Assembly: GCA_947455995.1 (NCBI GenBank) | Contig: CANGQA010000005.1 | Span: forward strand, 1,599-65,598 | Length of the DNA stretch: 64,000 nt | Direction of reading: 5' to 3' | Source of the DNA: Hyphomicrobiales bacterium | GTDB lineage: Bacteria > Pseudomonadota > Alphaproteobacteria > Rhizobiales > Beijerinckiaceae | Shown here: positions 24,980-44,586 of the stretch, piece after piece | Position numbering within the stretch: position 1 is the first letter of the stretch | Layout of the letters: every line of letters starts with the position of its first letter | Notes under the pieces: generated by a model | What the model was told of the DNA's origin: nothing | The model's database searches: none | What the model saw: only the letters and a program-made list of their open reading frames with translations | Program-made: the position numbers and the translations under genes

Positions 24980-25303
24980 ATATACACCTTAAGGTTGTAA
25001 ATAAATGACTAGTGGTTGATTAACTCGTTCGTTTGGAGATAAATTTAACCTATTTTATATAGTTTATGTGCATTATGACTTGATGACGACAGATATTTTC
25101 ACTATCAAGAAAAATAATCTATTAAGATGTTATTTGCAAAATGTCTTTTGTTAAACAATTAATTGTCCAAGCGTCGATGATTTGTAGGTCCCTCAGAGGA
25201 TGCATACTCTGGCAAGTTTGTTTTGCAATGTTAACGCGTGTCGATCCTATCTGAGCATTGCAAGCCTAACAGTTTAATCAGCTTGCTTTTGGAGAATAAC
25301 ATT
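24980..25303. promoter_or_regulatory. AT-rich divergent msrB / mucR control region
   Basis: This 324-bp intergenic stretch is far more AT-rich than the flanking DNA. It contains a perfect 12-bp palindrome, ACAATTAATTGT, at 25155-25166, and a GGAGA Shine-Dalgarno at 25291-25295. Confidence 0.5.
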
Positions 25304-25717
25304 ATGAGCGATCAACCAGACCAATATGGTCATACAATTGATGCCACTGCCGAGATTGTCTCGGCCTATATTAGTCACAATAGTATCTCGTGGCATGATT
25401 TGCCTGCCTTGATTAAGAGTGTCCATACTGGCCTGCGGGCTTTGGAAAGTAGCGAACCGATGGTTGCCGTCGAGAGTCATAATCCCGCTGTGCCGGTTAA
25501 GAAATCTGTATTCCAAGATCATATCATCTGTCTTGAAGACGGGAAAAGTTTCAAGTCGCTCAAGCGCCATTTGCAGGCCCATTACGGCCTGACACCGGAT
25601 CAATACCGGCAGAAATGGGGCTTGCCCGATAATTATCCCATGGTGGCCCCTGATTACACGCAGAAGCGGTCAATGCTGGCCAAGAAAATGGGTCTTGGAC
25701 GCAAGGCAGGCACATAA
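25304..25717 (+). CDS. mucR: Ros/MucR family zinc-finger transcriptional regulator
   Basis: ICLEDGKSFKSLKRHLQAHYGLTPDQYRQKWGLPDNYPMVAPDYTQKRSMLAKKMGLGRK is the hallmark Ros/MucR domain. Asp replaces the second Cys. Confidence 0.95.
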   Translation: MSDQPDQYGHTIDATAEIVSAYISHNSISWHDLPALIKSVHTGLRALESSEPMVAVESHNPAVPVKKSVFQDHIICLEDGKSFKSLKRHLQAHYGLTPDQYRQKWGLPDNYPMVAPDYTQKRSMLAKKMGLGRKAGT

Positions 25718-25818: not shown

Positions 25819-26184
25819 CTAGTCTTTGCAGTCCGATCTCATGCTGCGCCATAACTGGCATTCGGCCCGCCATGCCTGCAACAATGCAATGTGGCGGTTG
25901 ACATCATAATGCGTCTGGTTGCGGTCCAGCCCGGATTGATGCGCCTTGCGCCTTTGTTGCTGCAACGCTTTGCGCAACCTCTCCAAAACCTTTGCTGTCA
26001 TCGCAGGCTCATCGCCTTGTAAATCTGTAGGCCAAATCCGCAGCAAAGGCGGCAGATGCTGAATCCGCACATAGCGTTTGACCCCTGCCTCGATGGTGGC
26101 ATCGACAGCCCGCCAAGCCTGTATCCTCATGATGTGATCAAGCGCTCCATTCACCAGACCTGAAGGGGTGTGAGCTAGGGTCAT
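25819..26184 (-). CDS. Conserved-looking hypothetical protein (121 aa)
   Basis: The ATG at 26184 has a GGAG Shine-Dalgarno 9 nt upstream. The protein is helical and basic (RLRKALQQQRRKAHQ...HYDVNRHIALLQAWRAE). I do not confidently recognise the family. Confidence 0.55.
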   Translation of the reverse strand: MTLAHTPSGLVNGALDHIMRIQAWRAVDATIEAGVKRYVRIQHLPPLLRIWPTDLQGDEPAMTAKVLERLRKALQQQRRKAHQSGLDRNQTHYDVNRHIALLQAWRAECQLWRSMRSDCKD

Positions 26185-26272
26185 AGGTTTTTTCTCCAAA
26201 ATATATTGACAATTTACCTATTATACGAAAATAATCCTATATTACAAATGTCTTGTTGTTCACCTATCCCTA

Positions 26273-27151
26273 ATGGAGCCAACCATGACCCATTCCTTGC
26301 CTGTCCTGACCCCGAATTCTAACCCTCACGAAGGGCCTGTCCGTGCCTTGAGCGATCATTATTGCGGCCTCACGGTGCAGGCGCAGCAGGTGCTTGCGCT
26401 ATTGGCGCAGCCCGATTGCTATGGCCGGACGGCACTGGTCGCGGGCAAGGTCAGCGTGATCGGCAAACGTGGCGGAATCTCGCTGGTGGTCGGGCAGGTC
26501 GAGCTGACACAGATTGATTCGCTGGTCACATCGGGCCATCTCATCCGTGTCGGTCATGGGGAGGGTCTCATCTATCGCGTTGCCCGCCGGCAACAGGCCC
26601 ATGCGACACAATCGGCACAAGAGGCCGTAGCGAAAAGACCCAAATTCCAGACGAGACAGGAAAAAAGGGTGCGTGTTGCGCAGGAAAGTCCACTGCTGTG
26701 GTTGGCGCGTCGCAAAGATAAAAGCGGACATGCCATGATTTCAGCCACAGCTCTTGCTGCGGGCGAGCGGTTGCAACAAGATTTCATCCAGGCCGGAATG
26801 AGCCCAAATATGAGCTCGGACTGGTCAGGCATGCCTGTAAGAGGTGCAGGACATGCTGGCAGCGCCTTGCTGCATAGCGAACGCCATATGGCTGCCTTAC
26901 AAAGGTTGCGGAAGGCTTTGGATGCTTGCGGCAGTGAACTTGCCGGGGTGTTGCTGGACCTGTGTTGTTTTCTCAAACCAATCGAGGTTGTGGAACAGGA
27001 ACGGGGCTGGCCCGCGCGATCGGGCAAGGTGATCCTGAAATTGGCTCTGTCAGCCCTTATGCGCCACTACGGTTTGTCAGAATATGCGCAAGGGTCGTCC
27101 CGCCCAGCCAAGCATTCTATCTGGCGCGCGTCCGATCAGCAGGCCGATTGA
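26273..27151 (+). CDS. Hypothetical protein (292 aa), possible C-terminal helix-turn-helix-like region
   Basis: This long ORF has normal codon bias and is divergent from the 121-aa gene. The central motif is ESPLLWLARRKDKSGHAMISATALAAGERLQQDF. The C-terminus is GWPARSGKVILKLALSALMRHYGL. An alternative start is the ATG at 26285, behind a GGAG. Confidence 0.55.
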   Translation: MEPTMTHSLPVLTPNSNPHEGPVRALSDHYCGLTVQAQQVLALLAQPDCYGRTALVAGKVSVIGKRGGISLVVGQVELTQIDSLVTSGHLIRVGHGEGLIYRVARRQQAHATQSAQEAVAKRPKFQTRQEKRVRVAQESPLLWLARRKDKSGHAMISATALAAGERLQQDFIQAGMSPNMSSDWSGMPVRGAGHAGSALLHSERHMAALQRLRKALDACGSELAGVLLDLCCFLKPIEVVEQERGWPARSGKVILKLALSALMRHYGLSEYAQGSSRPAKHSIWRASDQQAD

Positions 27152-27157
27152 TCAGGG

Positions 27158-27583
27158 TCAGGCCAAGGCCTGCGTGGCATCACGGCGGATGCGTTCCACC
27201 ATCGAACGCACGCCGTTGGAGCGTTGCGGGGTGAGATGTTCGGAAAGTTCCAGCTGTTTGAACAGTCCCATCACATCGCTGGACAGCACGTCTTGCGGAG
27301 CTTTCCCATCGTAAAAGCTGAGGACCAATGCCACCAGACCCTTGACGATATGGGCATCGCTATCACCCCGGAACCGGAGCAAAGGTGAGCCATCGGGCCG
27401 TTGCGTCAGACGAGTGACCAACCAGACCTGACTGGCACATCCGCGCACGCGATTGTGTTCTGAGCGCTCTTCGTCCAGTAGGGGAGCAAGCGAACGCCCC
27501 ATCTCGATCAGATAGCGATAACGGTCTTCCCATGTATCAAGCATGTCGAAGGTGGCTATCACATCGTCAATTTGAAGCGTCAT
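27158..27583 (-). CDS. sufE: SufE-family sulfur acceptor protein
   Basis: The sequence WEDRYRYLIEMGRSL...NRVRGCASQVWLV contains the conserved Cys loop. Confidence 0.9.
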   Translation of the reverse strand: MTLQIDDVIATFDMLDTWEDRYRYLIEMGRSLAPLLDEERSEHNRVRGCASQVWLVTRLTQRPDGSPLLRFRGDSDAHIVKGLVALVLSFYDGKAPQDVLSSDVMGLFKQLELSEHLTPQRSNGVRSMVERIRRDATQALA

Positions 27584-29401: not shown

Positions 29402-29874
29402 TGGCTTTCTGGAAAGAGAAAACCCTGGATGAAATGACCCCGCAAGAATGGGAAAGCCTGTGTGATGGCTGCGGCCGTTGTTGTCTTGTCAAACTGGAAG
29501 ACGAGGATACAGCCGAGATCTATGCCACCGATGTCAGTTGTGTCTTGTTCGATCCGTTGACCTGCCAATGCAAGAATTATAGCCAGCGCGCCTCTCTGGT
29601 CCATGATTGTGTGACCCTGACACCCGATGATGTGCGGAGCCTGCCATGGCTGCCGCCCAGTTGCGCTTATCGGTTGGTGCATGAAGGCAAGGATTTGCCC
29701 GATTGGCATCCTTTGGTTTCCGGCTCCTCCCGGACGGTGCATGAGGCGGGAGTTTCCGTGCAAGGCCGCGTGTTCGCATCCGAAGACGAGGTGCCGCTTG
29801 ATGACTTGCCGGCCCGCATCAAGGACTGGCCTCTGCAATGGCCGTCCAGTCCGAAGGGTAAAAGTGCCCGCTGA
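29389..29874 (+). CDS. ycgN: YcgN-family (UPF0260) cysteine-cluster protein
   Basis: It has the motifs [21 protein letters not shown] and [11 protein letters not shown]. The start may be 29398 or 29401. Confidence 0.85.
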
Positions 29875-30035
29875 TTGACGCGAGCAGACTGATCAATCGG
29901 CCCGTCATTAGCCATAATATGAACATTATTCCTATATAGGATTATAGTCCTTGACAGGGCCGATGGTTTTGCCTTACTTTTATATGGTCCAAAAGCCTGC
30001 AGGCCGGTGAGGCAGGGAAGGATGGGGCCTGTCTC

Positions 30036-30542
30036 TTGTCACCGGGGTTGCAGGGTTATTTCAAGAGGCCCGAAGCCATGACATTGATCAGTGAACAGAT
30101 GTTCAAACCCTTTTCCTCATGTCTCACTTCCACCACGACAGATCACGACAACCCGCCCTCACGTTGTTTTTATCACTGCCTGGCCGTTATGCCTTACCAG
30201 AAGGGAGGGCCGGGATGGATATGCAAGCGGTTGGGCCGTTTGCTTGCCAGTGATATTTCGCAACTCGAAGACGGTAAAAGTCCTGCAAAATTGCTCAAAC
30301 GCGGCAAGCTGATTGCCCGTTGGGCCAAAGCTGCCAAAGATCTGAATTCATCCTGCTGCACTGCGCCAGACCCAGATCAGTTGAGGCTCGCCAAGCCGGA
30401 TCAAGCATCTTGCGCAGCCGATCCGATTGCGCCTTATCCAAGGGAGCGGTTGATATCGGAGCCCTTGGGCGTTGAAGCTTTCCGAATGGCTTTGTCCAGG
30501 GAACTTTCCCTGATACGAAATAAAAAGGAAAAAATTCCTTGA
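30036..30542 (+). CDS. Orphan hypothetical ORF (168 aa) upstream of the GTA cluster
   Basis: It is the only sizeable ORF in the 0.8-kb lower-GC gap. It has a basic helical middle (KRLGRLLASDISQLEDGKSPAKLLKRGKLIARWAKAAK), a TTG start, and no family I recognise. Its coding status is uncertain. Confidence 0.3.
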   Translation: MSPGLQGYFKRPEAMTLISEQMFKPFSSCLTSTTTDHDNPPSRCFYHCLAVMPYQKGGPGWICKRLGRLLASDISQLEDGKSPAKLLKRGKLIARWAKAAKDLNSSCCTAPDPDQLRLAKPDQASCAADPIAPYPRERLISEPLGVEAFRMALSRELSLIRNKKEKIP

Positions 30543-30669
30543 AATTGTAACGCTGGTTGGGTATTGTTCTGTTATTGTCCAGTCTTCTGTTTTGTTGTGT
30601 TGAGCCACCCCATCCATTCAATCCAATCCTCTTATCAATATAAACCTCTCAGCTTATTCCCTTTTTCTT

Positions 30670-30701
30670 GGCACGGCAGTATCTCTGCCGTGCCATTTTT
30701 T
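30670..30701 (+). terminator. Strong intrinsic terminator 12 nt upstream of the first GTA gene
   Basis: A perfect 10-bp stem GGCACGGCAG (30670-30679) pairs with CTGCCGTGCC (30685-30694) across the loop TATCT. An A and T6 (30696-30701) follow. The opposite strand has no U-tail. Confidence 0.85.
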
Positions 30702-30712
30702 ATGGATCAGTG

Positions 30713-31255
30713 ATGACCCAATCCATGGCGCAATCGACAATCGCTCCGCTTGACCAGGAGGAGTTGTGCCGACTTTACCGTGACAGCGAGGAGACGGTGG
30801 CCAGTCTGATGGCGCGTTCAGGCTTACGGGCGTCCGAATTCTATCAACTGTTGCGGGATCGTGGCTTGCCGCTCAGGCGTCCGCGCCGATCCAACCGCTC
30901 CGGCAATACAGCACCAGATCCTGAACGGCCCCGGAAGCCTGTGCGCAGGGAGGATCTGATTGCCCGCTTGTGGGAGGCGGCGTCAGGCCATATGGCGCAA
31001 ATTGAAACGCGGCTCGCGCGGCTCGATCAAGAGCAATCCAGCCACCCACCGGCGGCGGGAACCGAGAGTGAACTTCGTATCATGGGCCTGATTGTTAAAA
31101 CCCTGCGTGATCTGGCAGCCCTTGATGCGGATGTCGCGGGGGCGCGGAAGAAGGAGATGGTTCAAGATGACCTTGCCGCCGAACTGGCCACCTGCCCCGA
31201 AAGCATGCGCGCGGAACTGGCTCGACGTCTTGCTGGATTGCGCGAAGGCCGGTGA
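30713..31255 (+). CDS. GTA g1-position protein (putative small-terminase-like)
   Basis: 180 aa, immediately upstream of and overlapping TerL. The N-terminus looks HTH-like (LCRLYRDSEETVASLMARSGLRASEFYQLLRDRGL) and a helical region follows. The assignment rests on position only. The TTG at 30668 in the track spans the terminator hairpin and is rejected. Confidence 0.45.
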   Translation: MTQSMAQSTIAPLDQEELCRLYRDSEETVASLMARSGLRASEFYQLLRDRGLPLRRPRRSNRSGNTAPDPERPRKPVRREDLIARLWEAASGHMAQIETRLARLDQEQSSHPPAAGTESELRIMGLIVKTLRDLAALDADVAGARKKEMVQDDLAAELATCPESMRAELARRLAGLREGR

Positions 31256-32564
31256 GGAAAAACGGATTATTGCCTCTCTGAGCGAACGCGACATTGAATT
31301 CATGCTGGCGGACTGGATGAGTTGGGCGCGGCCTGACCAATGCCCACCTGCTCTATCGCAAACCGGATTGCCATGGACGGTCTGGTTGGTGCTGGGTGGA
31401 CGCGGGGCAGGCAAAACCCGCACAGGCGCAGAGTGGGTCCGCGGTATGGCTATCGGACTACCACCCTTTGCCGATCGCCCTGCCGGGCGTATTGCTTTGG
31501 TGGGGGAAACCCAGGCCGATGTCCGCGATGTGATGATCGAGGGAGTGTCGGGCCTGTTGTCTGTCCACAGACGGGACGAGCGGCCAGTCTGGCAGGCCTC
31601 GCGCCGAAGGCTTGAATGGCCTAACGGCACCATCGCACAGACTTTTTCCGCGGAAGACCCCGATAGTCTCCGCGGTCCGCAATTCGATGCTGCTTGGCTT
31701 GATGAATTGGGAAAATGGCGGCGTGCCGAAGAGACCTTCGACATGTTGCAATTCGGCTTGCGGCTGGGTGCCCAACCTCGTCAGACAGTGACAACGACGC
31801 CACGTCCGGTGCCTTTGTTGAAGCGGCTGATGGAAGATCCCGCAACAGCCATTTCCCGCGCGGCTACCCGTGCCAATGCCTTCCATCTGGCGCCATCATT
31901 TCTTGATGCCGTGGTCAAGCGCTATGCGGGAACGCGATTGGGCCGGCAAGAGCTGGAAGGCGAATGGCTGGATGAGCGCAATGATGCGCTGTGGACGCGC
32001 GCCGCATTGGAAATCTGCCGGATCGGGGTCGGAGACACGCCGCCACTTCAACGACTGGTGATCGCAATCGACCCGCCCGCCAGTTCGGGTCGGGATTCGG
32101 ATTCTTGCGGGCTGATCGTTGCGGGAATTGACGTCAACCGGACGGTCTATGTGCTCAATGATGCCACGCTGCCCCAAGCCCGCCCGCATGTCTGGGCAGG
32201 AAAGGCTGCTGCTCTTTATCGGGACTACGAGGCTGATGCCGTGGTGATTGAAACCAATCAGGGCGGCGAGATGGCCGAAGCGGTGTTGCGGGAAGCTGAT
32301 CCCGAATTAGCGGTGCTGCCGGTTCGTGCCACCAGAGGCAAGATGCTGAGGGCCGAACCTGTCGCGCTGCTTTACGAACAAGGACGAGTGAAACATGCAG
32401 GACTTTTCCGTGAGCTTGAAGATGAGATGTGCGATTTCGGCCCTAATCGGGAGGGTTGGGGTCTGTCGAACGGCCATTCGCCGGACCGGCTTGATGCTCT
32501 GGTCTGGGCTGTTACGGCTTTGGCCTTGGGCCCCAAAGCCACCCCACGCGTGAGACGGTTGTAA
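31167..32564 (+). CDS. GTA/phage terminase large subunit (g2-like)
   Basis: It has a Walker A motif (LVLGGRGAGKTRTGAEW), an N-terminal LSERDIEFMLADWMSWARPDQ typical of GTA TerL, and a C-terminal nuclease region. The start is uncertain (ATG 31167 or TTG 31230). It overlaps g1 in another frame. Confidence 0.9.
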   Translation: MTLPPNWPPAPKACARNWLDVLLDCAKAGEEKRIIASLSERDIEFMLADWMSWARPDQCPPALSQTGLPWTVWLVLGGRGAGKTRTGAEWVRGMAIGLPPFADRPAGRIALVGETQADVRDVMIEGVSGLLSVHRRDERPVWQASRRRLEWPNGTIAQTFSAEDPDSLRGPQFDAAWLDELGKWRRAEETFDMLQFGLRLGAQPRQTVTTTPRPVPLLKRLMEDPATAISRAATRANAFHLAPSFLDAVVKRYAGTRLGRQELEGEWLDERNDALWTRAALEICRIGVGDTPPLQRLVIAIDPPASSGRDSDSCGLIVAGIDVNRTVYVLNDATLPQARPHVWAGKAAALYRDYEADAVVIETNQGGEMAEAVLREADPELAVLPVRATRGKMLRAEPVALLYEQGRVKHAGLFRELEDEMCDFGPNREGWGLSNGHSPDRLDALVWAVTALALGPKATPRVRRL

Positions 32565-32609
32565 GGGCCACGCATCCCTCGGCCTCCCGCACTCCGACAC
32601 TGCAAGGAC

Positions 32610-33812
32610 ATGACCATGAGCACTTTTGTTGATCGCTGGTTGCGGCGGGCTTTTGCACGCCCCGATCACACCAAAACCTCCGCCACCGGACCGATGATGG
32701 CCCTCTACCAAACGGGGCGTCCGGTGTGGACACCCCGTGATTACGCGAGTTTGGCCAAAGAGGGCTTCCAGAGCAATCCGATCGTCTATCGAGCAGTCCG
32801 CATGATTGCGGAAGCCGCTGCTTCGGTGCCTTTTCTGCTCTATGATGGCCGTAAGGAATTGGTCGATCATCCTTTGATGCGGTTGATGACCACGCCCAAT
32901 CCGCGTGACAGTGGCACGGTGCTGCGCGAGGCCCTGATTGGCTACCTGCTGGTCTCGGGCAATGCCTATCTGGAAGCGGTTTGTGATGCAGGACAGGTGC
33001 GCGAGATCTATGCCTTGCGACCGGACCGAATGCGGGTGGTGCCAGGCGGGGATGGCTGGCCTGCCGCTTATGATTATCATGTCAACGGGCAATCTGTGCA
33101 GTTCGACCAGGATGCTGTGCCTGTTCCGCAAATCTTGCATCTGACCCTGTTCCATCCGCTCAATGATCATTATGGCCTGTCGCCGATGGAAGCGGCTGCG
33201 GCTTCTATCGACATTCATAATGCGGCGGGAGGATGGAACAAGGCACTGCTCGACAATGCGGCGCGACCGTCCGGTGCCTTGGTCTATGCCGGACCACCAG
33301 GGGCCACTTTGGGGGCCGAACAATTTGAACGTTTGAAAAATGAGCTGGAAGCCTCCTTTCAAGGCTCAGCCAATGCGGGGCGTCCTTTGCTGCTGGAAGG
33401 GGGGCTGGATTGGAAGCCGTTATCGCTTACCCCGAAGGATATGGATTTTATGGAGGCCAAATCGGCCGCTGCCCGTGACATCGCGTTGGCCTTCGGCATC
33501 CCTCCGATGCTGCTGGGTCTGCCAGGGGATAATACCTATGCCAACTATGCGGAAGCCAACCGGATTTTCTGGCGGCAGACCGTGATCCCGTTGTCCAGCC
33601 GGATTGCAACAAGCATCACGCATTGGCTTGCGCCTGTTTATGGGCATGTCACCTTGCAGCCGGATCTGGACCGGATCGATGCGCTGTCTCTTGAGCGTGA
33701 CGCCCTTTGGGCCCGCCTGGGCAAGGCCGACTTTCTGACTGATGACGAAAAACGGGAAGCGGTTGGCTACGGCCCTCTTCATGCTGCCGGAACCGTAAAA
33801 GGCCAGCCATGA
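32610..33812 (+). CDS. HK97-family portal protein (g3-like)
   Basis: 400 aa with NPIVYRAVRMIAEAAASVPFLLY and MEAKSAAARDIALAFGIPPMLLG motifs. An AAGGA Shine-Dalgarno precedes the start. Confidence 0.9.
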   Translation: MTMSTFVDRWLRRAFARPDHTKTSATGPMMALYQTGRPVWTPRDYASLAKEGFQSNPIVYRAVRMIAEAAASVPFLLYDGRKELVDHPLMRLMTTPNPRDSGTVLREALIGYLLVSGNAYLEAVCDAGQVREIYALRPDRMRVVPGGDGWPAAYDYHVNGQSVQFDQDAVPVPQILHLTLFHPLNDHYGLSPMEAAAASIDIHNAAGGWNKALLDNAARPSGALVYAGPPGATLGAEQFERLKNELEASFQGSANAGRPLLLEGGLDWKPLSLTPKDMDFMEAKSAAARDIALAFGIPPMLLGLPGDNTYANYAEANRIFWRQTVIPLSSRIATSITHWLAPVYGHVTLQPDLDRIDALSLERDALWARLGKADFLTDDEKREAVGYGPLHAAGTVKGQP

Positions 33813-33991
33813 ATGCCGGTCTGGATATGATTGTCGCACGCGGGGATTTGGCTGATCTAGCCCTGTTCCTGTGGGCGTCGGGAGCCTCGACAGCTCTGGC
33901 CGTCACTTTGCGCCAGCTTGGTGAGGCCAATCGCCGTTTTGATGAATTCATCCGGCAACTACACCACTTCAACAGCCATTGGGATGGCTGA
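33809..33991 (+). CDS. Small ORF coupled to portal (g3.5-position, one hydrophobic helix)
   Basis: 60 aa. Its ATG overlaps the portal stop (ATGA). It has one hydrophobic segment (LADLALFLWASGASTALAVTL). Confidence 0.45.
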   Translation: MNAGLDMIVARGDLADLALFLWASGASTALAVTLRQLGEANRRFDEFIRQLHHFNSHWDG

Positions 33992-34021
33992 CCTTAAAGC
34001 GTAAAACGGGAGATATCTGCC

Positions 34022-34228
34022 ATGCTTGACCGTTTGTCTGTCGATCTGCCCCAGCCGTCATTGGTGCCGGATGATCCTGCAGAAGCGAACGAAACCCTGA
34101 AGGTGCAGGCCCGGTTTTGGCAGCATCTTGTCCGCCTGACTGCTCCGGCCCGCCGCCTCCAGCAAATCCGCAAAGACTTTGCTGGCGGGCGTGAACCGCA
34201 GAACGCGTTGCGGGAGGGTTTGTTGTGA
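34022..34228 (+). CDS. Small ORF coupled to the prohead protease gene
   Basis: 68 aa. Its stop overlaps the GTG start of the protease (GTGA). I do not recognise the family. Confidence 0.4.
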   Translation: MLDRLSVDLPQPSLVPDDPAEANETLKVQARFWQHLVRLTAPARRLQQIRKDFAGGREPQNALREGLL

Positions 34229-34701
34229 TCGAACATCATCCCTCCAAGGCTGATGTACCGGTCGGTGAATTTGACGGTTATGCAAGCCTGTTCGGCCAGC
34301 CTGATCTGGGCCGTGATGTTGTTGCCAGCGGGGCCTTCGGTGAAAGCCTTGCCCGGCGCGGCGGTGCGGCTGGAATCAGGCTTTTGTGGCAGCATGATCC
34401 TTCCCAGCCCATCGGTGTCTGGACCGAGATACGGCAGGACCAGCACGGGCTCTATGTGCGCGGTGCGCTGAACCTGTCGGTCGCACGCGGGGGCGAATTG
34501 TTCGCGCTCTTGCAACAGGGCGCGTTGGGGGGGCTGTCAATCGGCTACCGCACCCAGAAGTCCTACGCGGATGCCCGCCACAGCGTGAGGATTTTAACCC
34601 GCATCGATCTTTGGGAAGTGTCGCTCGTGACATTTCCTTTACTGCCCTCGGCCCGTGTGTTGCGGGTTGCGGGATCCCCCTCGAACCGGAGACACTCATG
34701 A
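34225..34701 (+). CDS. HK97-family prohead protease (g4-like)
   Basis: It has FDGYASLFGQPDLGRDVVASGAF, LLWQHDPSQPIGVW and GLSIGY motifs. Confidence 0.85.
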   Translation: MIEHHPSKADVPVGEFDGYASLFGQPDLGRDVVASGAFGESLARRGGAAGIRLLWQHDPSQPIGVWTEIRQDQHGLYVRGALNLSVARGGELFALLQQGALGGLSIGYRTQKSYADARHSVRILTRIDLWEVSLVTFPLLPSARVLRVAGSPSNRRHS

Positions 34702-35987
34702 CAAGTTCCAATACTTCTGTGCAGTCCTCGTTGCTGCCCCCTGTTTTGCTGGCACCGGAAGTGAAGGCTTTTGACGCCGAACCCATTGATGCGCTCACCA
34801 CAGTCAATCGCCATTTCGAGGCCTTCAAGGACGGGAATGACCAGCGTCAGTCGCTGATCGACAAAGGCCGTTCGGTCGATGTTTTGATGGAAGAAAAACT
34901 GGCCCGTATGACCCATGCACTGGACGAGGCGCAAAGCAGATTGGAGAGCGCTTTACGTCAGCAACGCCGTCCGATGCTGGAGGGTGCCGAGCATGACTAT
35001 ACCAGCCCGCAACACCGCCACTATAAAAGTGCCTTCCACGATTACATGCGCTCTGGCGAAACATCCGGCCTGAAGGCACTCGAGCTCAAAGCGTTGTCCG
35101 CAGGCAGTCAGACCGATGGAGGCTATTTGGTAACACCGCCAGTCGAACGCGACATTCTCAAGCGTATGTCCGTGGCCTCACCGATCCGTTCGATTGCCAC
35201 AGTCCAGCAGATTTCAACCGCGACCTATCGCAAAGCCTATTCGACCACCGGGCCGGGAGCAGGATGGATCGGCGAAGTCGTGGCGCGCCCGCAAACCACC
35301 TCGCAGGTGATTGCCGATCTGAGTTTCCCGACCATGGAACTCTATGCCATGCCTGCAGCAACCCAGACTTTGCTGGATGATGCGGCGGTCAATGTCGAAC
35401 AGTGGATTGCCGATGAGGTGCAGGTTGTGTTTGCCGAGCAAGAAGGCGCAGCCTTCGTCAATGGTGATGGCACAACCAAGCCGCTCGGCTTTATGACACC
35501 GGCAAAAATTGCACAGGCCAACTGGAGCTGGGGCAAACTCGGCTATACCGTCACGGGGCTGTCGGCAGGCTTCACTGCCACCAATGGATCGGATGCGCTG
35601 ATTGATCTGATCTATTCGGTCAAGGCGGGCTATCGCCAGAGCGGACGTTTTGTGATGAACCGCAAGACGCAGGCGGCGATCCGCAAGCTCAAGGCCACAA
35701 CGGGCGAATATTTGTGGCAACCTCCGGCCATATTGGGCCAGCCTGCGACCTTGATGAATTTTCCGCTCGTCGAGGTCGAGGACATGCCCGATATTGCCGC
35801 CGATAGTTTTTCTGTTGCCTTCGGCAATTTCGCCCGCGCATATCTGATCGTCGACCGGATCGGTATCCGGGTGTTGCGTGATCCTTATTCCAACAAGCCC
35901 TATGTGATGTTCTACACCACCAAACGCGTGGGAGGTGGAGTGCAGGATTTCGATGCCATCAAACTGTTGAAATTCGGCACGGTCTGA
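34698..35987 (+). CDS. HK97-family major capsid protein (g5-like)
   Basis: The ATG at 34698 overlaps the protease stop (ATGA). It has an N-terminal scaffolding-like coiled coil, then DGGYLVTPPVERDI and GEYLWQPP motifs. Confidence 0.9.
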   Translation: MTSSNTSVQSSLLPPVLLAPEVKAFDAEPIDALTTVNRHFEAFKDGNDQRQSLIDKGRSVDVLMEEKLARMTHALDEAQSRLESALRQQRRPMLEGAEHDYTSPQHRHYKSAFHDYMRSGETSGLKALELKALSAGSQTDGGYLVTPPVERDILKRMSVASPIRSIATVQQISTATYRKAYSTTGPGAGWIGEVVARPQTTSQVIADLSFPTMELYAMPAATQTLLDDAAVNVEQWIADEVQVVFAEQEGAAFVNGDGTTKPLGFMTPAKIAQANWSWGKLGYTVTGLSAGFTATNGSDALIDLIYSVKAGYRQSGRFVMNRKTQAAIRKLKATTGEYLWQPPAILGQPATLMNFPLVEVEDMPDIAADSFSVAFGNFARAYLIVDRIGIRVLRDPYSNKPYVMFYTTKRVGGGVQDFDAIKLLKFGTV

Positions 35988-36008
35988 GGACCGATTTGAT
36001 GCGGCGCC

Positions 36009-36794
36009 TCACCGATTCAGGGTCTTGTCGATCCATGCACGCTGGGGTGCCAGCATGATACCTTGGGTCATGGCCCCGCAACGGGCTTGACCCTTGCCTT
36101 CGCTCCAGACCGTGATGGCTTGCAACACGCCGTCACGGTCGAAGATGCCGCCACCGGAATCGCCTGTGCAGGCACCCTGGTTGGCTTGTCCGGCGAGCCA
36201 AAGCAACAGCTTGCCCTGTCCGTAGGGCGTGACCACGGGGAGGGTGATCTGCCGCAAGGTGCCTGTGCTATCTGGCTGGGCCTCGCTCGACAGGCCGAAC
36301 CCTTGAATAGTCAAGCGTGTGTCTTTGGGGCTTGGAGGCTGACGGGATGGCGGCAGCTTGGCCGGTGCGAAACTGTCGGGCAAAATACGTTTCACCTGCA
36401 CAATCGCAAGGTCGATCGAACGGCTGCGCGCAGCAATGGCATCGCTGTGATAATCGGGATGGATGGTGATCCGTTTGGGCTCTTCCATGACAGGCTTGCC
36501 GTCAGCCCCGCGCCAATGCAAGCGGTAGGCAGACCCGCCTGTTACGCAATGGGCCGCTGTCAAAACGGAATCTGGTCCAATGACCACTCCGGAGCAGACC
36601 GAGCCGCGATCGGACAAGACCATCAGCATCGGATTTTCACCCGGGGGCACGCTCTGTCCACCGACAATGGCCCGAACCGGTGCGGTGGTGATCAGTATTG
36701 CGCCCAAGGCGAGCATGGCCAGATGGGCGATCATGATGCCGGAGCGTAAGGGATTCAGATCAATCAAGAGTGAAGACCTCTTTTTGAAAACCAT
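36009..36794 (-). CDS. Secreted trypsin-like serine protease (peptidase S1 family)
   Basis: The signal peptide ends ...APVRA, directly followed by IVGG. The catalytic triad contexts are LTAAHCV, IDLAIV and CTGDSGGGIF. It is antisense to the GTA genes. The start is 36794 (MVFKKR...) or 36734. Confidence 0.85.
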   Translation of the reverse strand: MVFKKRSSLLIDLNPLRSGIMIAHLAMLALGAILITTAPVRAIVGGQSVPPGENPMLMVLSDRGSVCSGVVIGPDSVLTAAHCVTGGSAYRLHWRGADGKPVMEEPKRITIHPDYHSDAIAARSRSIDLAIVQVKRILPDSFAPAKLPPSRQPPSPKDTRLTIQGFGLSSEAQPDSTGTLRQITLPVVTPYGQGKLLLWLAGQANQGACTGDSGGGIFDRDGVLQAITVWSEGKGQARCGAMTQGIMLAPQRAWIDKTLNR

Positions 36795-36825
36795 TTTTCT
36801 TTTCCACTCATCGGAGATTTTGCAG

Positions 36826-37386
36826 ATGATGTCCATGCAATTGATCGCGGAACCGCTTGTCGAGCCGGTGACATTGGACGAGGCGAAGCTGTTTTTGCGG
36901 ATCGACACCCTTGATGATGATGCGTTGTTGGCCAATCTGATCATGGCTAGCCGCCGCGTGATCGAACTCACAACCCGAACCTGTCTGCTGCAACAGACGT
37001 GGCGATTTGGGGTTGATCGTTGGCCGTCGAACACGTTGCTGCGCTTGCCATTGGCTCCACTTCAGTCTGTGTCCTCTGTGACTGTGATGGACGCAAGGGG
37101 CAATCGGCTTGCGCAAAATGTGCTCGATTTCCTGGCGAACCCAACCAGTGTGCCGCCCACTGTTATGGCCAAAACCGTCCCGCCTGTCAGTGCTGCTCGT
37201 GAGGGCGGTATCCAGGTCGATGCTGTGCTTGGTTATGGCAGCACCGCTGCATTGGTCCCTCAGCCTTTACGGATGGCGGTGTTGATGGTGCTGGCACAAT
37301 ATTATGAAACGCGGGGGCAGGGGGACGGCACACTGCCTGCGGCTGTGCGGACATTGATTGCACCGTTTACACGGAGGGCCTTATGA
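36826..37386 (+). CDS. Head-tail connector/adaptor (gp6-like, g6)
   Basis: The N-terminal signature EPVTLDEAKLFLRIDTLDDDALLANLIMASRRVIE identifies it. The stop overlaps the next start (ATGA). Confidence 0.8.
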   Translation: MMSMQLIAEPLVEPVTLDEAKLFLRIDTLDDDALLANLIMASRRVIELTTRTCLLQQTWRFGVDRWPSNTLLRLPLAPLQSVSSVTVMDARGNRLAQNVLDFLANPTSVPPTVMAKTVPPVSAAREGGIQVDAVLGYGSTAALVPQPLRMAVLMVLAQYYETRGQGDGTLPAAVRTLIAPFTRRAL

Positions 37387-37748
37387 GCACGCCCTTGCAT
37401 GACGCCGGTTTGCGGGCCCGTGACCCTGCATTGGCGGGCCGTCTGCGCGACCGCCTGAGTGTGGAAGTGCCTATTGATGTGCCCGATGGATATGGCGGGC
37501 TGACCCGAAGTTATCAGGTTAGCACCAAAGTCTGGGGGATGATTGTGCCTTATCAGATCAGGACAGGACGCGGGCCTGATCAGGACGGGCAGGTGATCAG
37601 CCATTTGGTTGTGATGCGCTGGCGCGGTGATATCGAAATCGGGATGCGGCTGCGCAAGGGTACACGCCTCTTGCGGATCTGCGAGTTGGCCGATGCCGAC
37701 GGACGGCGGATGCGGATGGTGTGTCTGTGCGAGGAGGATCACGCATGA
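37383..37748 (+). CDS. Head closure / head-tail joining protein (g7-like)
   Basis: 121 aa with LRDRLSVEVPIDVPDGYGGLTRSYQVSTKVWGMIVP, typical of the SPP1 gp16/HK97 gp8-type family. Confidence 0.75.
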   Translation: MSTPLHDAGLRARDPALAGRLRDRLSVEVPIDVPDGYGGLTRSYQVSTKVWGMIVPYQIRTGRGPDQDGQVISHLVVMRWRGDIEIGMRLRKGTRLLRICELADADGRRMRMVCLCEEDHA

Positions 37749-38182
37749 CTGTGACAGTCCCTATCATCACGGGTCCGGTCCTGGCTGTGCGCGAGAGGCT
37801 GCGTAATTTCTGGTTGGCCGATTCCGTGCTGCTCGGCTTGCTGGGTGGCGAGAAGATTTACGATACAGCCCCGCGTTCGGTCATTCCGCCTTATGTGACC
37901 TTTGGCAGCGTGACAGCCAGACAATGGCTCGGCGGCAGCCAGCGTGGTCATGAGCAGAATATCACGATTACTGTCTGGTCGCGCCAGATTTCGGACCGCG
38001 AAAGTCTTGAGATCGCAAGTCGGATGAGCCTGATCAGCGATGGCGCTTTGCTGTCTATGGCGGATTATCAGCTTTGGCCCTTGCAGGTGTTGAACCTTGA
38101 TTGTCCGCAAGGCACGCCGCAAGGTTTGCGGCAGACGGTCGTGGTCCTGCGGGCGCTGACTGCGCCAATCGCTAGAACCTAG
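37745..38182 (+). CDS. DUF3168 tail-completion/terminator-like protein (g8-like)
   Basis: It has the motif KIYDTAPRSVIPPYVTFGSVTARQW. The ATG overlaps the g7 stop. Confidence 0.7.
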   Translation: MTVTVPIITGPVLAVRERLRNFWLADSVLLGLLGGEKIYDTAPRSVIPPYVTFGSVTARQWLGGSQRGHEQNITITVWSRQISDRESLEIASRMSLISDGALLSMADYQLWPLQVLNLDCPQGTPQGLRQTVVVLRALTAPIART

Positions 38183-38484
38183 TAAAGCGGTATTTGCTGG
38201 AGCGCGGCATTGATGTCGGCGCGGGCCTGGCTCTGCTGGTTGGTCAGCATGACGAGAAACTCCTCGCTGGCTGGTTCAATACCGGTTTCGATCGCGAAGA
38301 TATTATGGCTGAGCGAGGTGTAGTAGGCGACAAGGCGGCGGAACACCGGATCACGGTGTTTAAGACGCGCAAAATTGGCGGCCTGATCCGCAAATTCCTC
38401 CTCGACTGAAAGCAGCACAGGGGAGACCACCAAACCCGGATCTTCGGGGTGCGATGGCGGCTCATCTGGATTGGGATCACTCAC
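38179..38484 (-). CDS. DUF465 (YdcH-like) small protein with an acidic/Pro-rich N-terminal extension
   Basis: FARLKHRDPVFRRLVAYYTSLSHNIFAIETGIEPASEEFLVMLTNQQSQARADI follows the DUF465 pattern (..HF.RL..eY......I...E....p.sde.l..LKk.rL.lKDEI). Its stop overlaps the g8 stop within CTAG. Confidence 0.65.
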   Translation of the reverse strand: MSDPNPDEPPSHPEDPGLVVSPVLLSVEEEFADQAANFARLKHRDPVFRRLVAYYTSLSHNIFAIETGIEPASEEFLVMLTNQQSQARADINAALQQIPLY

Positions 38485-38595
38485 AGCAACAACTCCTGAT
38501 TCATCGAGAATTCATAGCCCTAACCTGCATGTCCGACAACCGGACAGAATGGGCTTGGCAGCAGCAGCTTTTTGAAACGGTTATGGCGAGGATGC

Positions 38596-39255
38596 ATGAA
38601 TACGGATTTTCACGAAGTGGTTTTTCCGCTGGCCTTGTCGATGCAGGCCCGCGGCGGGCCGCAGCGGCATACAAACATCGTTACCACTGGCGCAGGTCGC
38701 GAGAACAGGATCAGCCGTTGGGCCTATTCACGATATCACTACGACATCGGCTCAGGAATAAAAACACGCGCTGATCTGGCGTTGCTGCTGAGCTTTTTTG
38801 AGGAACGGCGCGGGGCGTTTTACGGCTTCCGTTTCCGTGATCCGCTCGATCACTCCAGTGCGGAGCCGGATATGGCCGTGACGCCGTTCGATCAGCCGAT
38901 CGGGCAGGGTGATGGCACGCGTCTGGCGTTTCAACTGGTCAAAACCTATGGCGCTGCGTTTGCGCCTTATGCGCGACCTATTTTCAAGCCTGTTGCCGGA
39001 ACTCTCCGGCTTGCTGTGGCGGGAGTGGAGGTCGCACTGGGGCAAAATGCCGATTGTGATCCGCGCACGGGACTGGTGCGCTTTCGTTCGGGCCATTGTC
39101 CGGCGCCCGGGCAGACGGTAACCGCAGGTTTTGAATTCGATGTCCCCGTGCGTTTTGCCGATGATCGGCTGGAAGCAGCTCTCGATGCTTTCGGAAGCGG
39201 CGAGATCACCAAAATCAGTTTGATCGAATTGCTCTGCCAACCGGAAAAGGCATGA
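38596..39255 (+). CDS. GTA distal tail protein (DUF2460 / TIGR02217-like, g12)
   Basis: The hallmark N-terminus is MNTDFHEVVFPLALSMQARGGPQRHTNIVTTGAGRENRISRWAYSRYHYD. A GAGGA Shine-Dalgarno lies 6 nt upstream. Confidence 0.85.
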   Translation: MNTDFHEVVFPLALSMQARGGPQRHTNIVTTGAGRENRISRWAYSRYHYDIGSGIKTRADLALLLSFFEERRGAFYGFRFRDPLDHSSAEPDMAVTPFDQPIGQGDGTRLAFQLVKTYGAAFAPYARPIFKPVAGTLRLAVAGVEVALGQNADCDPRTGLVRFRSGHCPAPGQTVTAGFEFDVPVRFADDRLEAALDAFGSGEITKISLIELLCQPEKA

Positions 39256-39256
39256 G

Positions 39257-40138
39257 ATGATGCGTGATATTCCTCAAAGCCTGACGGGTGATGCCGCCAC
39301 CCATGCCTTGTGCTGGCGTGTCATGCGGCGCGATGGCGTGGTGCTGGGTTTTACCCAACATGATAAAGATTTGATATTCGGCGGGATAACGCATGAGGCG
39401 CGCAGCAGGCTGGATGTGGAGTCTGCACATCAGCTGGCGGGCTTTGCTGGCAGCGAAGCCGTATTGCTGGGTGCGCTTGTTTCTGAAAGTGTGACACAGG
39501 CCGATATAGTGGCAGGTCTGTATGACCATGCAACCATCGAGACATGGCTGGTCAATTGGAACGACCCAACCCAATGCGTCCTGCTCGATTGCGGATCGAT
39601 CGGATGGATCGAGTCTTCCGATCAGGGGTTCAAGGTCGAGGTGCGCTCCGTCGTTGACCAGTTGATGCAGCCACTGGGCCGTTTGTTCCAGGCCCATTGC
39701 TCGGCCGATTTGGGCGATAGCCGTTGCGGCATTGCTTTGAAGGGTCCGGGGTTTCGGCTTGAGGGCATCGTCCGCAATACCGATGGCCGCTCCATGCTGT
39801 CCATGGATTCGGGAGGCTTCGGCGCCGATGGGTTCAGCCGTGGCGTTTTGCACGTGCTTGATGGGGGCAATGCGGGCATGCGGGCGGATATCAAGACACA
39901 TGATGTCAACGGCGGTCAGGCGCAAATCAGTCTGTGGCAGGCCTTGCCTTTCATGCTTGGAGTCGGTGATCGCGTCGCTGCCATTGCAGGGTGTGACAAG
40001 ACCATCGGCACCTGCCAGACGCGCTTTGGCAATGCCGCTAATTTCCGTGGCTTTCCGCGTATGCCAGGCAATGATCTGTTGATCCGTCGGGTGAATGATG
40101 GCGAGGCGGGTATGGATGGCGGGAGTCTTTTCCAGTGA
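39257..40138 (+). CDS. GTA hub protein (DUF2163 plus phage BR0599-like C-terminus, g13)
   Basis: It has THALCWRVMRRDGVVLGFTQHDKDLIFGG and a C-terminal CDKTIGTCQTRFGNAANFRGFP. Confidence 0.85.
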   Translation: MMRDIPQSLTGDAATHALCWRVMRRDGVVLGFTQHDKDLIFGGITHEARSRLDVESAHQLAGFAGSEAVLLGALVSESVTQADIVAGLYDHATIETWLVNWNDPTQCVLLDCGSIGWIESSDQGFKVEVRSVVDQLMQPLGRLFQAHCSADLGDSRCGIALKGPGFRLEGIVRNTDGRSMLSMDSGGFGADGFSRGVLHVLDGGNAGMRADIKTHDVNGGQAQISLWQALPFMLGVGDRVAAIAGCDKTIGTCQTRFGNAANFRGFPRMPGNDLLIRRVNDGEAGMDGGSLFQ

Positions 40139-40596
40139 TCCCCTCCATGACAACGGACACCTTGGCCAAATGCGTGGTGGATGAGGCACGTCGATGGATT
40201 GGCACTCCCTATCTCCATCAGGCCTCGTTATGCGGGGTAGGTTGTGACTGCCTCGGTCTGGTGCGTGGTATCTGGCGGACCTTATATGGCGAAGAGCCCG
40301 AACCCTTGCCTCATTACAGTGCCGATTGGGCCGAGGCATCGGGCAGCGAACAGTTATTGCGAGCCGGACACAGGCATTTCATACCGGTTGCTATGGCGGA
40401 TATGGCAGCCGGAGATGTGGTGCTTTTCCGCTGGCGCGCCGGGTGTCCAGCCAAACACATGGGCGTGTTTTCTGGCGACGGCACCATGATCCATGCCCAT
40501 GCGGGTGCGTCCGTCGCAGAGGTGCATTTCGGTATCTGGGCACGCCGCATCGCACAGGTTTTTCGCTTTCCGACGCCAGATCAACGGGGTGAATGA
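40135..40596 (+). CDS. NlpC/P60 cell-wall peptidase (g14-like)
   Basis: It has WIGTPYLHQASLCGVGCDCLGLVRGIW (catalytic Cys) and GTMIHAH (His). Both ends overlap their neighbours. Confidence 0.85.
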   Translation: MIPSMTTDTLAKCVVDEARRWIGTPYLHQASLCGVGCDCLGLVRGIWRTLYGEEPEPLPHYSADWAEASGSEQLLRAGHRHFIPVAMADMAAGDVVLFRWRAGCPAKHMGVFSGDGTMIHAHAGASVAEVHFGIWARRIAQVFRFPTPDQRGE

Positions 40597-44558: not shown

Positions 44559-44586
44559 CACGACTTTTTATAGAAGGATCAATCCT

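Follow-up and report, generated by a model that had tools for sequence, protein, structure and literature searches.

A predicted leader terminator between the head promoter and g1 of an RcGTA-type gene transfer agent cluster in Hyphomicrobiales, and a candidate GafA-type route across it

Introduction

Control of gene transfer agents (GTAs) by termination and antitermination of transcription is already known, having been documented for the Caulobacter agent, CcGTA (PMC11150451), and for the Bartonella agent, BaGTA (bioRxiv 10.1101/2024.11.20.624540). In Caulobacter, GafZ binds a palindrome located between the -35 and -10 elements, after which RNA polymerase bypasses both terGTA and rrnB T1 (PMC11150451); in Bartonella, BrrG acts together with a leader terminator (bioRxiv 10.1101/2024.11.20.624540). 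These are so far the only demonstrations, one involving an atypical terminator of repeats that follows the terminase gene and the other a GTA that is unrelated. Agents of the RcGTA/GafA type are widespread in the Rhodobacterales and the Hyphomicrobiales, and for these antitermination has only been suggested, in discussion sections: both Tran & Le and Korotaev et al. raised GafA as a possible antiterminator, with no terminator of an RcGTA-type cluster being named. The C terminus of GafA binds the RcGTA core promoter, and the Rhodobacter capsulatus protein has been described as an initiation factor that contacts the omega subunit of RNA polymerase (PMC9638019). The subject of this report is a predicted intrinsic terminator at positions 30669-30701 of a 64,000-nucleotide stretch of a Hyphomicrobiales genome (assembly GCA_947455995.1, contig CANGQA010000005.1, positions 1,599 to 65,598; hereafter the window, to which coordinates refer unless another locus is named). 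It lies directly upstream of g1, the presumed small terminase gene of an RcGTA-type structural cluster.

A first-pass annotation of the window had drawn attention to this hairpin and had proposed control of the cluster by read-through, with the Caulobacter and Bartonella agents as precedents. As precedents for antitermination both stand, but the Caulobacter terminator follows the first (terminase) gene and does not lie in a leader. What the window and its relatives appear to supply is the missing cis element, that is, a canonical leader terminator downstream of a head promoter conserved across orders, and with it a concrete candidate terminator for the antitermination long suspected of GafA-type regulators. 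The head promoter carries a palindromic element at the place where Q and GafZ bind theirs. The arrangement is read here, with slightly better than even confidence, as a leader attenuator resembling lambda PR'-tR' that would be bypassed by a promoter-loaded factor of the GafA/GafZ type.

The Terminator and Its Position before g1

On the plus strand, positions 30669-30701 read TGGCACGGCAG-TATCT-CTGCCGTGCCA-TTTTTT, corresponding to a 5' arm (30669-30679), a loop (30680-30684), a 3' arm (30685-30695) and a T6 tract (30696-30701). The stem comprises 11 bp, eight of them G-C pairs, with a loop of 5 nt, and the energy of the hairpin is about -22 kcal/mol. The earlier description of a 10-bp stem, a 5-nt loop and T6 at 30670-30701 is thereby confirmed, with a closing U-A pair that extends the stem by one. 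Between the T6 tract and the start codon of g1, the ATG at 30713, only 11 nt remain (30702-30712, plus strand), and these hold GGA (30704-30706), a Shine-Dalgarno-like triplet read from the sequence as the ribosome-binding site of the gene. Assignment of this ATG, which had also been taken as the start in the first-pass annotation, is backed by a conserved MTQ N terminus and by the genes called on contigs identical or related to this one. As had likewise been noted there, no space for a promoter is left between terminator and gene, and the relatives all have their T tract directly against the ribosome-binding site.

When both strands of the window were scanned for perfect stems, 11 terminator-like sites were found, among which the hairpin at 30669-30701 is the strongest and the only one to combine a perfect stem with T6. 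With mismatches tolerated, it ranked second by energy, behind an imperfect intragenic fold followed by T4 only. The predicted fold of the 170-nt leader is more stable than every one of its shuffled versions (200/200; z = -4.2). In the minus-strand reading, AGAAAAAGGG and not a T tract comes after the hairpin, so that the terminator should be unidirectional. It is very probably a genuine and functional Rho-independent terminator, its termination efficiency being a predicted property.

Conservation across Clades and Orders

Relatives of the locus were assembled from DNA fetched around g1 homologues, a pattern match in metagenomes, matches to TerL (the large terminase) in PLSDB, a pattern match in IMG/VR, and Paracoccus homologues of g1. 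Two clades, both of uncultured freshwater Hyphomicrobiales, are distinguished by the identity of their g1 to that of the window, 66-100% in clade 1 and about 50% in clade 2; contigs identical to the window locus occur in lake metagenomes. The TerL matches from Rhodoplanes, Sphingomonas and Piscirickettsia proved to be phage or plasmid elements and not GTAs.

A hairpin followed by T5-T8 precedes g1 in 12 distinct relatives from the two clades, between which the stem sequences are unrelated. In all clade 1 and clade 2 loci the gap between g1 and orfX, the gene that precedes it, measures 109-170 nt and closes in a GC-rich hairpin of -18 to -22 kcal/mol, with 16-19 nt from the end of the stem to the g1 ATG and with the T tract set against the ribosome-binding site. 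The stems are specific to their lineages (GGCACGGCAG, GGCAUGGCAG, GGCGCGGC, GCGGCGGGG, CGCGGCGGG and GTCGCCGCCGGA), and in clade 2, where the ribosome-binding sites are GGAG or GAGGAGG, the layout is that of the window.

The pattern of substitution is informative about the level at which this hairpin is maintained. In the clade 1 alignment, standard pairs occupy 64 of 64 cells of the 11 pairs (100%). Two pairs show compensatory changes (U-A to G-C and A-U to G-C), and two show wobble changes (C-G to U.G and G-C to G.U) that become mismatches if read on the other strand. In slid controls, in which partners were moved by 1-3 columns, pairing falls to 29-55%, and the observed score was reached by 7 of 500 shuffles. 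The clade 2 hairpins were judged sequence by sequence. Retention of the pairing, combined with wobble changes that are acceptable on the plus strand only, argues for selection on a plus-strand RNA hairpin.

A leader hairpin with a U tract is also found downstream of the same type of promoter in loci from which both orfX and P1, the promoter-like site upstream of it, are absent. In Shinella sp. PSBB067 the leader terminator (TTTTTCATTTT; -19 kcal/mol) lies about 25 nt before g1, and two IMG/VR loci carry, respectively, a terminator of -17.9 kcal/mol with T5 (L052) and a 13-bp stem, or 12 bp without its closing A·U pair, followed by TCTTTTT (L056). In Paracoccus denitrificans, P. pantotrophus, P. 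aerodenitrificans and P. cavernae, hairpins of -20 kcal/mol with T6 and covarying stems stand 45-50 nt before g1. The presence of the terminator without orfX in Shinella, L052, L056 and Paracoccus indicates that it is more than a terminator of orfX.

The Head Promoter

The predicted GTA head promoter, P2 (30526-30567, plus strand), was identified by a promoter scan and recurs at the same place in every related locus. Its layout is AGGA-N6-TCCTTGAAA, followed by the spacer element ACGCTG and the -10 hexamer TATTGT. An inverted repeat, AGGA-N6-TCCT, occupies 30526-30539; the -35 hexamer TTGAAA lies at 30539-30544, overlapping the orfX stop codon (TGA, 30540-30542); ACGCTG lies at 30550-30555; and the -10 hexamer, at 30562-30567, is separated from the -35 by 17 nt. 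The -35 hexamer is TTGACA in most Hyphomicrobiales lineages, TTGACT in Paracoccus and TTGAAA in the window, and the -10, TATTGT in the window, is TAGAGT or CAGTGT elsewhere. A -35 so close to consensus agrees with a strong promoter whose regulation comes after initiation.

Alignment on TTGAC of 18 head promoters, drawn from clades 1 to 3, Shinella, Methylobacterium and three Paracoccus species, gives TTGACa-N5-aCGct-N7-GgtAg and then, 6-9 nt later, gtcAT..Tc. Among a broader collection of IMG/VR GTA loci that have TerL downstream, the spacer sequence is TTGACAGCGTGACGCTG, placing the palindrome CAGCGT-N-ACGCTG between the -35 and the -10. Matches to a 14-base P2 pattern in IMG/VR were mostly noise, and a filter for the full motif kept nine real sites, six of them with TerL downstream. 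In lineages that lack orfX, the sole promoter-like site before g1 is of the P2 type. P2 is thus best taken as probably the window's version of a GTA head promoter with a layout common to two orders, its activity and start site being predicted.

These results refine what had been said about where transcription of the cluster begins. The first-pass annotation had placed the start in a T-rich leader or further back. A conserved promoter-like site does lie upstream of the terminator, as this would require, but the leader begins with a specific predicted promoter set over the orfX stop codon. An internal promoter, for example within 30713-31167, had been named there as an alternative; a scan of the plus strand from 30568 to 34000 found no promoter-like site.

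The Paracoccus head region has a comparable plan in all four species (L036, positions 2945-3077; L038, L040 and L041), with TTGACT-N-GCGAACGCT-N-TAGAAA followed by CATGCTGGGAGA and then by the hairpin with T6, and the flanks upstream of it diverge. In one clade 2 locus (L029, around 5840-5947), an insertion sequence is situated directly after P2, with a transposase-like open reading frame that starts MSKKRYKPEEIVAKL; from that point the sequence departs from the remaining leaders of clade 2, and the contig does not extend as far as g1.

Another promoter-like site, P1, is of the same class as P2; it occupies 29930-29980 on the plus strand, 130 nt before orfX, and is near-invariant across clades 1 and 2. 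It consists of a palindrome, TCCTATATAGGA (29930-29941), the repeat AGGA-N6-TCCT (29938-29951), a -35 hexamer TTGACA (29951-29956) and a -10-like hexamer TACTTT (29975-29980). The repeat AGGA-N6-TCCT has only two matches in the window, at P1 and at P2, and the motif AGGA-N6-TCCTTGA(C/A)A likewise occurs twice per locus in clades 1 and 2. When metagenomes were scanned for the P1 pattern, only GTA-head loci were recovered, and neither the P1 pattern nor the core of the untranslated region that follows it had a match in viral contigs. At both sites the repeat is fused to the -35 hexamer, and at P1 a third half-site lies within TCCTATATAGGA. The repeat is centred near -41.5, where class II activators, or repressors that occlude the -35, typically bind. 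The motif AGGA-N6-TCCT is also present upstream of g1 in several IMG/VR GTA loci and in Shinella, but not in Paracoccus.

The Leader and the Question of an RNA Switch

Between P2 and the hairpin, the leader (30568-30668, plus strand) is C/U-rich, poor in G and poorly structured, with a GC skew of -0.17. Its length varies from about 35 to about 105 nt among relatives, with large indels even between close ones. A second TATTGT, resembling a -10 hexamer, lies at 30573-30578, near the predicted start site, and in most lineages a conserved CATNNT occurs 6-9 nt after the -10, which can alternatively be read as an anti-Shine-Dalgarno sequence. In five leaders of clades 2 and 3 (L008, L021, L023, L031 and L033), this post--10 element (CAUCCUCC, CAUGCUCC or CAUUCUCC) is complementary to the ribosome-binding site of g1 (GGAG, GAGGAGG or GGAGG), and the two pair in predicted folds. 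As an alternative to a -10-like pause signal, a translational mask in read-through transcripts is a possible role for it, as modelled from these folds.

A fold that competes with the terminator was sought in nine distinct leaders, and the terminator 5' arm was found to pair with leader sequence no better than with shuffled versions (fraction as good, 0.33-0.995), which rules out an alternative antiterminator fold. Searches against Rfam gave no match at the gathering score over the 64 kb and, in permissive mode over 29800-30800, only terminator-like noise (E >= 0.1). Since no alternative fold is encoded, read-through, if it is regulated, must need a factor.

orfX and Its 5' Untranslated Region

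The first-pass annotation had treated g1 as the first gene of the cluster. This does not hold, as g1 is preceded by orfX, which has P1 as its own promoter-like site and moves with the cluster. orfX (30078-30542, plus strand) is an orphan, fast-evolving gene of 154 aa that gene calling finds on every contig of clades 1 and 2. It stays directly upstream of g1 where the host flank differs, as with an SLT gene in L021 and SelR in L023, and so belongs to the GTA locus and not to the host flank. The ratio of nonsynonymous to synonymous substitution rates is 0.22-0.58 for orfX versus 0.10-0.34 for g1, in keeping with a protein-coding gene under weak purifying selection, and identity is about 50% within clade 1 and 23% between clades. 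The stop codon lies 127 nt before the terminator, into which orfX transcripts would run.

For the orfX product no match was found in Pfam, NCBIfam or PHROGs, and an exhaustive profile search of 1.8 billion representatives recovered only two proteins, both from its own clade 1 family. The AlphaFold2 (AF2) model (pLDDT 60) has four helices, the rest being disordered, with long linkers that contain Cys, and a Foldseek comparison of it with the PDB returned generic helical hairpins only (E > 0.4). The possibility that orfX encodes a Q-, sigma-4-, GafY- or DnaA-like factor was rejected on the basis of sequence, profile and Foldseek searches.

The region that precedes orfX is far more constrained than the gene itself. 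Its 5' untranslated region (UTR; 29986-30077, core 29997-30053, plus strand) is conserved and forms a stem structure of two stacked helices, in which 29997-30002 pairs with 30048-30053 and 30004-30009 with 30040-30045, around an invariant GCAGGRAAGGAUGGGGCCU. Column identity across the clades is 87%, as against the 23% amino acid identity of orfX. RNAalifold predicts 18 pairs, with one compensatory change. The element is present once per locus, always at the same position, and has no Rfam match; it is a candidate for a new cis-regulatory RNA, as judged from the alignment. An upstream open reading frame of 19 codons within it (30022-30081), whose stop overlaps the orfX start as ATGA, was considered as a conserved peptide and rejected, the frame being lost in clade 2. 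Conservation of the UTR is therefore at the nucleotide level, and the reading frame is probably a by-product.

A Candidate GafA-type Regulator

The first-pass annotation had also suggested a search for a GafA- or GafYZ-like antiterminator gene, and within the window such a search turned up a candidate. A DUF6456 protein of 292 aa (Pfam E 4e-42) is encoded at 26273-27151 on the plus strand, 3.5 kb upstream of the terminator. GafA homologues are annotated as DUF6456 proteins (PMC9765227), and in Hyphomicrobiales gafA has been described as encoding proteins of 22-32 kDa, with mucR upstream and sufE downstream (Sherlock & Fogg, PMC9638019). The arrangement in the window matches this published mucR...gafA...sufE synteny, with a MucR/Ros gene (ROS_MUCR) at 25238-25717 and SufE at 27158-27583 on the minus strand. 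A divergent DUF6477 gene (25819-26199, minus strand) holds the position that rcc01866 has beside R. capsulatus gafA, to which it is likened by position alone. A small DnaA-like gene usually precedes gafA, with exceptions noted (PMC9638019). On these grounds of family and synteny, the protein is a candidate for a role at P2.

The divergent promoter region upstream of the gafA-type gene (26195-26272) is conserved between clades (ATTGACAAT..CCTATTATAYGAAAATAATCCTAT; L023, L025, L027, L029 and L030), and it has a TCCTAT half-site in common with P1. The sequence match hints at a common regulator or at autoregulation.

How the Terminator May Be Crossed

In the proposed circuit, transcription would start at P2, a promoter of the sigma-70 type, and also at P1, which would drive orfX. 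By default, polymerases from P2 would make a leader RNA of about 125 nt and stop at 30696-30701, those from P1 would make the orfX mRNA and stop at the same terminator, and the packaging and structural genes would remain silent. A GafA-type protein would then be loaded at the P2 spacer element (ACGCTG in the window, CAGCGT-N-ACGCTG in relatives), perhaps aided by the second -10-like hexamer at 30573-30578 through a sigma-dependent pause. The loaded polymerase would pass the terminator and transcribe g1, TerL and the remaining cluster genes, in a manner analogous to that of GafZ in Caulobacter or of Q at lambda PR'-tR'. Since the leader encodes no alternative RNA fold, a protein loaded at the promoter is the most likely agent of read-through. 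That GTA transcription has to cross the terminator appears likely. That a promoter-loaded antiterminator of the GafA type provides the way across is advanced more tentatively, at a little under even confidence. Such a circuit would offer an explanation of how a near-consensus promoter is kept silent in most cells of a population. Moreover, the same design in Paracoccus denitrificans, P. pantotrophus and Shinella, which are culturable and tractable, makes the question of GafA as an antiterminator directly testable.

A number of observations weigh against this circuit. Read-through itself, together with the identity and mode of action of the proposed factor, is deduced from sequence, and most of the related loci, being metagenomic contigs that come from a small number of lake data sets, are not fully independent. 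The P2 of the window is recognized by consensus matching only and is the most degenerate copy of the head promoter, with TTGAAA as its -35, TATTGT as its -10 and, of the palindrome, the right half alone. In the perfect-stem scan of the window, no other strong intrinsic terminator was found inside the GTA cluster, so that processivity is not required by the sequence. Likewise, no GafY-like (DnaA-like) gene lies beside the gafA-type gene, there being no plus-strand open reading frame between 25717 and 26273. The DUF6456 protein has no relative among PDB sequences and reaches a pLDDT of only 37 in a single-sequence AF2 model, and a Q/sigma-4-like fold for it is taken from the literature only. Finally, the hairpin is absent from the 35-nt leader of Methylobacterium bullatum, L033 and L090 lack a canonical terminator despite having the same type of promoter, the U tract is weak in L132 and the stem is interrupted in L031. 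With the terminator absent or weak in several clusters that share the promoter, it would seem dispensable for the basic GafA logic. The comparison of loci indicates that the terminator, which recurs across orders and is not universal, is an extra layer of control and not the core switch.

Some of these same features would suit a passive attenuator or insulator, which would end the orfX/P1 transcripts and read-through from the host and would damp P2, with the GafA-type factor acting at initiation as an activator or sigma-like protein and with leakage sufficing for the cluster. The position of the hairpin 127 nt past the stop of a real gene, the lack of a canonical terminator in about half of those clusters that share the promoter, so that it is not essential, the role in initiation described for R. 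capsulatus GafA, with its omega contact (PMC9638019), and the lack of internal terminators demanding processivity all point this way. In every lineage, however, the terminator stands after and never before the conserved head promoter, and it persists without orfX in Shinella, L056 and Paracoccus. Hairpins of -18 to -22 kcal/mol with T5-T8 are predicted to be efficient, and the homologous factor GafZ antiterminates even at rrnB T1, so that a purely passive role is considered unlikely. A more drastic alternative, that the palindrome is a chance feature or a DNA-level protein site and not an RNA terminator at all, would account for a perfect inverted repeat in the DNA. It is scarcely credible given that pairing is kept while the stem sequence varies, that the G.U and U.G changes amount to A.C mismatches on the other strand or to broken half-sites, and that the T tract is always 3' of the stem on the plus strand.

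Two further alternatives assign the main role to an RNA. The unit from P2 to the terminator could be a stand-alone small RNA of the Hfq type, C/U-rich and about 75-130 nt long, whose CUCC 5' end acts on ribosome-binding sites such as that of g1, GTA transcription then being a by-product of read-through or having some other driver. In keeping with such an RNA, the unit combines a promoter-like site with a 5' part that lacks structure and with a terminator that carries a U tail, and it has the conserved element after the -10, whose CUCC or UCUCC is complementary to the g1 GGAG or GGAGG in clades 2 and 3 and pairs with it in predicted folds; the weak Rfam matches, moreover, were only to small RNA models dominated by their terminators. 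No Rfam family is matched at threshold, however, the body of the leader is poorly conserved, with large indels among close relatives, and in the clade to which the window belongs the complementarity is weak. The unit also always directly abuts g1, as a leader would, and transcription of g1 would be left without explanation, all of which makes the small RNA a quite improbable account. Similarly improbable is a cis-acting RNA, either a riboswitch or attenuator in the P2 leader or a P1 5' UTR that modifies the polymerase in the manner of put or EAR, so that only P1 transcripts pass the terminator. In the more specific form of this idea, to which equally little weight is given, the RNA at 29997-30053 would act in cis or would dock the GafA-type factor, with P1 transcripts reading through and P2 transcripts stopping as a short C/U-rich RNA. 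Conservation of the UTR far above that of orfX, its stable stem without relation to a known RNA family, and the tandem placement of P1 and P2 upstream of one terminator lend it some appeal, and a P1-UTR device, if true, would represent RNA-based antitermination in a GTA, layered on an ancestral GafA-terminator circuit. Against it, pairing with the terminator 5' arm does not exceed that in shuffled controls, covariation in the UTR is minimal, at one compensatory pair, and in Shinella, L056 and Paracoccus the terminator is found without P1, UTR or orfX, so that the UTR is not a general read-through device.

Genomic Context

The gene that follows the terminator, g1 (30713-31255, plus strand), encodes 180 aa and lies upstream of, and overlaps, the large terminase gene. 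Its family is narrow, with 19 homologues, and its profile has no relative among PDB sequences. Comparison with the RcGTA g1 of Paracoccus gave a weak colinearity (hhalign E 0.011, probability 3.8%), and all of the 120 matches listed in a search from Paracoccus g1 were from Paracoccus. The RcGTA-type structural cluster as recognized by Pfam matches spans 31302-44558 on the plus strand and encodes TerL, an HK97 portal, an S78 protease, capsid, connector and tail-completion proteins. Within it, g12 corresponds to DUF2460, g13 to Gp84_N with BR0599 and g14 to NlpC/P60, and g15 encodes 1321 aa with GTA_TIM, Phage-tail_3 and Rcc01698_C. Upstream on the plus strand are a peptidoglycan-binding-like gene, DUF1491 and YcgN, the last ending at 29874, followed by an 840-bp stretch that holds orfX only.

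Directly after g15, at 44539-45732, a gene with DUF2793 and Peptidase_S74 (an intramolecular chaperone) represents a tail-fibre-like GTA accessory gene, here inside the main cluster and not at a separate place in the genome. Another observation concerns one of the elements set aside above, a 54-kb phage-plasmid of Rhodoplanes serenus (L037, NZ_LR026982.1), which encodes a NusG-family protein at 1242-1790, two genes upstream of the terminase and portal genes. By analogy, this gene may exemplify a different route to late-gene antitermination in the same bacterial order, through a NusG paralogue.

Comparison with Described Systems

The closest formal parallel is with lambda Q, PR' and tR' (6S RNA). 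Both place an intrinsic terminator no more than about 100-200 nt downstream of a strong promoter, a predicted one here, and directly ahead of packaging and structural genes. A conserved element lies between the -35 and the -10 (here ACGCTG), a -10-like hexamer is found at the start of the transcript (here TATTGT at 30573-30578, CATNNT in relatives), and a small gene ends at the promoter, Q in lambda and orfX here. Unlike in lambda, no Q homologue was found, and orfX has no detectable similarity to Q; the candidate factor is instead of the DUF6456/GafA type and is encoded 3.5 kb away, and both the pause and the loading are predicted only.

CcGTA (GafY/GafZ with IHF, ZBE and terGTA; PMC11150451) is the nearer relative, with a cluster related to RcGTA and a homologous family of regulators, GafZ corresponding to the GafA C terminus (DUF6456). 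It likewise has a conserved palindromic element between the -35 and the -10 and a terminator that must be bypassed for the cluster to be expressed. The terminators themselves are very different, terGTA being composed of three GC-rich repeats of 150 bp after the terminase gene CCNA_02880, whereas here a single hairpin with a U tract stands 11 nt before g1. Furthermore, the Caulobacter -35 is degenerate, in contrast to the near-consensus hexamer here, and no gafY-like gene accompanies gafA in the window. In BaGTA (BrrG, Q21-like; P_bgtA-K), the common features are a minimal promoter that is constitutive, a leader that attenuates transcription and contains a predicted terminator, a -10-like element (needed in BaGTA) and the antitermination logic for a capsid and packaging operon. 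That GTA is evolutionarily unrelated, with a leader of 864 bp and a weak predicted terminator (-6 kcal/mol), and the antiterminator it uses comes from another family and is encoded in a second module of phage origin.

With RcGTA itself (PMC6363796, PMC9638019), the window has in common the type of structural cluster and, in its candidate regulator, a counterpart of GafA, which binds a fragment containing the -35, the -10 and the start site; the Hyphomicrobiales gafA is the shorter gene. The difference is that for RcGTA no terminator or antitermination has been reported, the latter having been raised only as a possibility; Paracoccus, which like RcGTA's host is among the Rhodobacterales, carries a conserved leader terminator. 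In the window the terminator sits between P2 and g1, as it does in Q-type circuits, the components of which are listed in bioRxiv 10.1101/2024.11.20.624540. The proposed circuit would contain all four components listed there, with binding, pausing and antiterminator activity predicted by analogy with those systems.

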